Source of the DNA: Escherichia coli
GTDB taxonomy: Bacteria > Pseudomonadota > Gammaproteobacteria > Enterobacterales > Enterobacteriaceae
NCBI RefSeq assembly: GCF_030013205.1
Contig: NZ_CP122648.1
Direction: 5' to 3' (one strand)
Length of the DNA: 64,000 nt
Of the stretch, positions 63,056-63,947 are shown piece after piece. Both the position numbers and the translations under genes were made by a program. How positions within the stretch are numbered: the stretch's first letter is position 1; each line of letters opens with the position of its first letter. Below the pieces are notes generated by a model, which worked only from the letters and a program-made list of their open reading frames with translations, ran no database searches and was not told the origin of the DNA.

Positions 63056-63947
63056 TTACAGGAGTAAGTGTAGACGTTGGGAAATGATATTTGTGAAGTT
63101 AATCCTGTTGTAGCAGGGCAAGATTACGAAAGCCCGCTCCCCGCAAGGACTGACGTCAGGTAGTTTCTGTCCATGGCTGCCCTTTCCATTCAAACGTGAA
63201 ATCAATAAGTTCATCAGGGACATCGCAAACAATATGAAGACGGATTTCTTCTCTGCCGTGACTTTTTTCACTAATTGCGTAACTGTCATGCTCTGGATTA
63301 TTTAATTCTTTCAGTGGGAATTTTTCCTCAAAGGCTTTATTAAGCCGCCCCTGATTTCCTTTTACAGCGAATAAATAATCACCGCCCTGTTTTTGTATCT
63401 TCTCTGCGATATCTTTCTGGCAACCCATCGCATCAGTTGTGATAATTTTTCCTTTAATATCCAGCATGTTAAGAAGTTCAGGGATAGCTGTGATCTCATT
63501 GGATTTCTTATCCGTCCTGATCTGTCCGATGACAAGACTGTGCATTGTTGAGAACGCACTAATGACATGAATCGCTCCCCTGCGGCGACTCTTGTCATAA
63601 GAATGCCGGAGCGTTTTTCCATCAATTGCAATAACGTCTTTATCATCTGAAGAATGGCAGTCACGCATCCAGTTAATAAAGCACTCGTGAAATTTTGAAG
63701 GACTGATACAGGATACAACTCTGGCGATGGTATCGTGAACAGGAATACCATTTTAAAAATCACCATATTGTTTTAAAAAATCGAGATGTGTTTCCCCAAA
63801 ATCCTCTATATCTTCCCAACCGTCTGCACAAGAAATAACGGCACAAATAGTCAACAGTAGAATATCCGACAATTTATGTTCCACTTTCCTGGCATGTCTG
63901 TAATCGGAAGTAATAGAAATATGTTCCATCAATTTTTTAAGTTCCAT
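63056..63947 (-). pseudogene. ybfD: ISAs1-family (H-repeat-associated) transposase, disrupted
   Basis: N-terminal frame 63753..63947 ([12 protein letters not shown]…KQYGDF) ends at TAA; the same frame continues after the stop ([11 protein letters not shown]…) into ORF 63156..63668, which itself ends early; 3' part is in another frame (63056..63289). Confidence 0.75.

Follow-up and report, generated by a model that had tools for sequence, protein, structure and literature searches.

The closest described relatives of the locus considered here are the H-repeats of Escherichia coli, which are associated with the C-terminal tips of Rhs proteins and for which no transposition has been observed (PMC3032704). 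The intact form of this element, ISEc1 (H-rptB, carrying yhhI; also ydcC), belongs to the ISAs1 family of insertion sequences (ISs), is 1291 bp long, and encodes a transposase of 378 residues. In K-12, the gene ybfD (b0706) represents the third, defective H-repeat of RhsC. It is near-identical to yhhI, so that expression measurements cross-map (PMC5318159), and foreign DNA has been integrated into the ybfL-ybfD intergenic region of K-12 (PMC7797564). An H-repeat annotated as a repeat_region (ECs_0731) is found at the same boundary between RhsC and ybgA in O157:H7 Sakai, where it is also a pseudogene.

Here we analyzed a stretch of 64,000 nucleotides of an E. coli genome (contig NZ_CP122648.1 of assembly GCF_030013205.1), referred to below as the window, which ends within a locus of this kind. 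We regard it as almost certain that this locus is an inactive, decaying ISEc1, that is, an H-repeat of Rhs elements belonging to the ISAs1 family, at the right edge of RhsC and orthologous to K-12 ybfD. In a pairwise alignment to intact ISEc1, for which the yhhI copy of strain FDAARGOS_1249 was used, the visible part of the defective element occupies 63114..64000 on the minus strand, and the element itself extends beyond the end of the window. Its position is fixed by a conserved neighbor, ybgA (62529..63038, minus strand), the first gene of ybgA-phrB, as defined by the list of open reading frames (ORFs) and by the annotation of K_EC180 and K-12. The ybfD remnant lies upstream of ybgA-phrB, separated from it by a gap of 75 bp, and phrB follows at 61114-62532, also on the minus strand, while the ORF list places dtpD at 59590-61071 on the plus strand. 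The last 7101 nt of the window are identical to the genome of E. coli K_EC180, and NCBI annotation of that identical sequence reads 'ybfD, ISAs1 family transposase, internal stop; incomplete; missing C-terminus', with the pseudogene feature ending exactly at the deletion junction described below (position 6821 of the retrieved K_EC180 region L001, window 63180). The remnant is thus a long-known pseudogene for which both defects have already been flagged in public annotation, and nothing about it is novel; the importance of the locus is correspondingly low, as the pseudogene had been correctly recognized beforehand.

Reading of the sequence upstream of the transposase ATG identifies the IS leader (63948..64000, minus strand), which carries the Shine-Dalgarno sequence AAGGAG at 63959-63954 and is nearly the same in K-12 ybfD and intact ISEc1. 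From this ATG, the ORF list and the translation give transposase codons 1-64 and a premature stop (63753..63947, minus strand), the peptide ending in KQYGDF. The stop is a TAA at codon 65 (63753..63755, minus strand) in the alignment to K-12 ybfD and intact ISEc1. Beyond it, the frame stays open through an ATG at 63668 to a TGA at 63156-63158, and translation, Pfam matches, and motif positions place transposase codons 66-256 in the original frame at 63181..63752 (minus strand). Codon 65 is TAA in the window and GAA in K-12 ybfD, in intact ISEc1 (yhhI), and in six other sampled ybfD alleles. The initial annotation of this DNA had proposed an ISAs1 (H-repeat) transposase with a stop after KQYGDF at 63753-63755 and a frame continuing into the ORF at 63668. 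It had attributed the stop to a single GAA to TAA change. The translation agrees with the position of the stop and the continuation of the frame, and the GAA in both K-12 ybfD and intact ISEc1 bears out the single change. A stop at the same position in intact family members, which would have spoken against that reading, is not what we found, codon 65 of intact ISEc1 being GAA.

The family assignment made there also holds, and it is unambiguous and no chance match. The repaired translation, 263 codons in length, scores 290.7 bits against the NCBIfam ISAs1 transposase model NF033564 (cut-off, 70) and covers profile positions 1-229 of 314, where intact YhhI (378 aa) covers positions 1-314. It matches two Pfam domains, one of them, DDE_Tnp_1_assoc, in its entirety (E=4.6e-31, profile positions 2-88 of 88), and the other, DDE_Tnp_1, only over positions 3-129 of 200 (E=3.9e-18), compared with 3-200 for intact YhhI. 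By the transposase model, the remnant therefore belongs to the ISAs1 family, but it encodes no complete DDE_Tnp_1 catalytic domain. It also has neither the full length of 1291 bp nor one uninterrupted 378-codon ORF. It is a defective derivative of the family and not an active member of it.

The second defect is directly visible in a gap-tolerant pairwise alignment of the window to the intact element, which yields one block at 64000-63181 (820 nt, 95.9% identity) and another at 63180-63114 (67 nt, 97.0% identity). The gap between the two blocks places the junction of a 313-bp internal deletion at 63180..63181 (minus strand). The bases missing from the window correspond to positions 2321-2633 of the region retrieved for the intact yhhI copy (L003) and to transposase codons from about 257 to 360. 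At the junction, GAAAGGGC is joined to AGCCATGG with a 2-bp GC microhomology, the GC itself being ambiguous in its assignment. The deletion shifts the reading frame, as 313 is not divisible by three, and in a three-frame translation the original frame reads GQPWTETT followed by a stop across the junction. The segment at 63156..63180 (minus strand) is accordingly out-of-frame read-through (..QPWTETT, TGA at 63156-63158) and not transposase sequence. When the three-frame translation is compared with the tail of ISEc1, the last 18 transposase codons and their TAA stop are found at 63124..63180 (minus strand), one base off the upstream frame. Codons in this tail frame start at 63180, and 17 of the 18 residues are identical to those of intact ISEc1. 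The residual homology is assigned to 63180-63124 because it is this frame that reads the C-terminus of the ISEc1 transposase. The initial annotation had described a disrupted 3' end in which the frame stops at 63156, a further frameshift or deletion follows, and the remaining homology lies at 63056-63289. The frame end stands and the further lesion proves to be the frame-shifting deletion of 313 bp, and only the placement of the homology has to be revised. The ORF at 63056-63289 was considered as a carrier of this homology and rejected. Its codons start at 63181, out of frame with the tail, and no Pfam family matches its product; the overlap with the remnant is due to chance.

Intact YhhI contains the DDE-type motifs AID109GK, TTD172AM, and HVE306NKLHW, in which D109, D172, and E306 probably constitute the catalytic triad, judging by the general pattern of the DDE_Tnp_1 superfamily. 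A sequence search of the PDB with intact YhhI for a solved homolog on which to anchor these residues gave no match. The remnant keeps the putative catalytic residues D109 (63623-63621) and D172 (63434-63432), and E306 falls in the deleted segment.

At the right end, a terminal inverted repeat at 63114..63133 (minus strand; reverse complement CAGGGCAAGATTACGAAAGC) matches the left end of the element in K_EC180, CAGGGAAAGATCACGTAACG, at 15 of 20 positions. Similarity to the other copies of ISEc1 does not extend past 63114 (...CTTGCCCTG), and in the copies at yhhI and in Sakai and DC71 the flanks diverge after CCCTG and are all different. The left terminal repeat, CAGGGAAAGATCA, begins 91 nt past the window end in K_EC180, equivalent to window position 64091. 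Terminal inverted repeats are thus present at both ends, the left one being seen in the identical K_EC180 sequence, and the length of the element derived from that genome is 978 bp, or 1291 minus 313. In strain 536 the site is empty, and ybgA comes immediately after ybfA. Alignment to this strain puts the onset of core-genome homology at CGTCTACAC (window position 63076), which leaves only 38 bp to the ybgA ATG; the 37-bp spacer at 63077..63113 (minus strand), neither IS nor core genome, therefore belongs to the right edge of the RhsC element. On the other side of the element, the lineage departs from K-12. In K_EC180 beyond the window (L001, positions 1-6000), the left end of the H-repeat is intact and borders on an IS1 fragment, and ybfD is separated from the next H-repeat by several orphan C-terminal fragments of Rhs, which have small ORFs (DUF6258, DUF3887, and hypothetical proteins) downstream of them.

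The distribution of the deleted element was assessed with a 301-nt query covering the junction, the IS end, and the ybgA start, for which 3,768 of 5,426 complete E. coli genomes gave matches with at least 80% coverage; locus states were read from 60 evenly spaced rows of the ranking. A match in a single piece, corresponding to the deleted ybfD next to ybgA, accounted for 34 of the 60 rows, while seven had multi-piece matches, in which the H-repeat beside ybgA is undeleted or rearranged (e.g., O157:H7 Sakai and DC71), and 19 had no H-repeat at ybgA. The junction is identical in eight sampled ybfD alleles, namely, those of the window, K-12, and six other strains. The nonsense codons are not: the stop is at codon 65 in the window and K_EC180, at codon 119 in strains 1579 and Survcare321, and at codon 254 in K-12, MS196-1, and USMARC-51688, and there are stops at both codons 18 and 254 in 2014C-4587 and O27:H7 B4103-1. 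That the stop codons differ by lineage indicates neutral decay. Neighboring full-length H-repeats also contain stops, at codon 16 in K_EC180, codon 18 in K-12 ybfL and in DC71, and codon 20 in Sakai. Between the window and K-12, 53 of 834 nt differ in ybfD (6.4%), compared with 25 of 510 in ybgA (4.9%) and 81 of 1419 in phrB (5.7%). As the divergence of ybfD is similar to that of its flanks, the deleted copy has diverged along with them, and the deletion is old. A 71-mer around the codon-65 TAA is found exactly in 219 of the 5,426 complete genomes (4.0%), and the four exact rows that were sampled were all ybfD. Being carried by about 4% of complete genomes, the nonsense allele might be used as a marker of its lineage.

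From these comparisons, we infer the following order of events at ybfD. The locus would have started as a full-length element of 1291 bp with a 378-codon gene for a DDE transposase. An internal loss of 313 bp would then have removed roughly codons 257-360, including the putative catalytic E306 (HVENKLHW), and shifted the frame; this deletion is old and common to many E. coli lineages. The gene, by then dead, would later have gathered nonsense mutations that vary with the lineage, the change of GAA to TAA at codon 65 being that of the window lineage. Whatever the order, the locus cannot make a transposase, and what remains is a pseudogene scar. If the sequence of events was as described, ybfD illustrates cleanly how a gene inactivated by a single ancient deletion goes on to acquire nonsense mutations independently in different lineages of E. 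coli.

The persistence of the deleted copy next to ybgA, widespread as it is at 34 of 60 evenly sampled genomes, might also be taken to mean that truncated products have been kept for a function. These would be the 64-residue N-terminal peptide or the 170-residue ORF from 63668, acting as an inhibitor of transposition or a DNA-binding regulator in the manner of truncated transposase derivatives of other IS families. The ribosome-binding site and ATG are indeed intact, and transcripts of the ybfD type are reported to be up-regulated in long-term stationary phase of K-12 (PMC4032248), where, however, the probes cross-react with near-identical copies (PMC5318159). With stops at codons 18, 65, 119, or 254, depending on the lineage, no single frame is conserved, and the 64-residue peptide stops inside the 87-residue DDE_Tnp_1_assoc domain (residues 8-94). 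Persistence is also simply explained by the absence of a mechanism for excision. We consider retained function to be very improbable, and we give just as little credence to the idea that the 978-bp element is a non-autonomous IS that intact ISEc1 transposase could move in trans. This latter idea draws on the presence of both terminal repeats in the identical K_EC180 sequence, with their 15 of 20 matching positions, and on the intact ISEc1 genes found in many E. coli genomes, but every deleted copy that was seen sits at one locus, next to ybgA, the K-12 copy has no left end and is fused to the preceding H-repeat, and transposition of H-repeats, according to the literature, has not been observed (PMC3032704).

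Finally, the stop or the deletion might be an artifact of the sequencing or assembly of one genome. Repeated IS copies can be misassembled, and beyond this general point nothing specific favors an artifact, which is already refuted by the data, the 71-mer with the TAA being exact in 219 independent complete genomes and the junction being found in K-12 and in all sampled ybfD alleles; its probability is negligible. An ISEc1 inactivated by deletion and decaying in place is thus the reading we retain, and none of the data speak against it.

The count of the TAA allele given above replaces an earlier count with a 44-mer (228 genomes), which was dropped in favor of the 71-mer haplotype (219 genomes). 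The 44-mer also picks up sequences other than ybfD, as shown by strain N3, where it lies in a different H-repeat. Located next to yafV (L013, positions 1342-2460), this H-repeat of N3 is undeleted and shares the TAA at codon 65 despite an identity to the window copy of only 95.6%. An H-repeat of BL21 at about 243 kb is one base off the window 71-mer, and the derivative C43(DE3) is one base off the 44-mer at the same coordinates as the BL21 H-repeat. Taken together, these sequences suggest either a recurrent G-to-T change or short tracts of gene conversion among dispersed H-repeats.

Whether an IS remnant at this position matters to its neighbors may depend on how ybgA-phrB is transcribed. Of the DNA preceding the ybgA start codon, the Rhs insertion spared only 38 ancestral bp. 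Transcription of ybgA-phrB in RhsC-bearing strains must therefore start in DNA derived from the element or read through from the ybfD promoter. In the case of read-through, the stop at codon 65 (codon 254 in K-12) could alter expression of the photolyase (phrB) via Rho-dependent polarity. We think such an effect unlikely. A consensus scan for promoters and terminators over 62900-64000 gave four promoter-like sites, against 2.8 ± 1.5 expected by chance, none of the four being on the minus strand in the interval from the IS end to ybgA, and the scan thus points to no start for ybgA transcription. A literature search on the ybgA-phr promoter found nothing relevant, and an Rfam scan of 61000-64000 found nothing in the ybfD region. 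In strain 536 (L006, positions 2890-3080), ybfA is followed by a terminator-like hairpin whose end lies about 44 bp upstream of the start codon of ybgA, and in RhsC-bearing strains all DNA upstream of -38 from this start codon has been replaced by element DNA. On the far side of phrB, a REP-like palindrome lies at 61052-61160 between the convergent genes dtpD and phrB, and the only matches of the Rfam scan are sub-threshold ones to naRNA4 at this palindrome, of 27.8 and 21.2 bits on the two strands (gathering score, 59.5).

Several other features were observed in the window at a distance from ybfD. The region between cydA and sucD (about 23700-36700) corresponds to a block for which the annotation of K_EC180 lists glutamate/methylaspartate mutase (glmS, glmL, and subunit E), methylaspartate ammonia-lyase, an AtuA-family protein, and a DUF4387 protein. 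In K_EC180 this block also contains a dicarboxylate symporter, a class I fumarate hydratase, cobO, and a LysR regulator. Going by the gene order of K-12, the block is presumably absent there. The window carries a 768-bp copy of IS1 at 31007-31774, with ORFs for InsA (91 aa, 31062-31337) and InsB' (31256-31759), flanked by the 8-bp direct repeat ACTGATTG. This IS1 is absent from the otherwise near-identical K_EC180, in which the site lies inside the DUF4387 gene of the methylaspartate-pathway island, so that the source of the window is closely related to K_EC180 but distinct from it. Downstream of gltA, there is a fimbrial operon (about 49960-54230) in which two genes are pseudogenes according to the annotation of K_EC180, the usher gene ybgQ with a frameshift and an internal stop and ybgO with a frameshift, and the window is 99.99% identical to K_EC180.

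Compared with the known relatives, the locus is closest to ybfD of K-12, with which it shares its position upstream of ybgA-phrB-dtpD, the 313-bp deletion junction, the right IS end, and the 37-bp flank. The equivalence to K-12 ybfD beside ybgA, already proposed in the initial annotation, is thus upheld by common neighbors, junction, and flank. The two alleles differ in how the frame is interrupted, as K-12 has GAA at codon 65 and TAG at codon 254, where the window has TAA and TGG, respectively. The window consequently does not have the 253-codon ORF ending in TAG that is present in K-12; the two carry different null alleles of one gene. The '253-residue YbfD' of K-12 thus owes its length to a TAG that is specific to its lineage and lies five codons short of the junction. 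A further difference concerns the left end, as K-12 ybfD is without the left terminal repeat because the copy abuts the preceding H-repeat (ybfL), whereas the K_EC180 copy has this repeat, abutting the IS1 fragment. Relative to intact ISEc1, the window copy has 95.9-97.0% nucleotide identity over the parts that are kept, and the terminal repeats, leader, and start codon are the same, but it is without the 313 bp, its tail is shifted in frame, codon 65 is a nonsense codon, and the full DDE domain cannot be encoded. The H-repeat of O157:H7 Sakai, with its stop at codon 20, is in contrast undeleted at 1291 bp and is separated from the core-genome boundary by 100 bp instead of the 37 bp found in the window, and because of this difference in the 3' flank, it is not necessarily the direct ancestor of the deleted copy.
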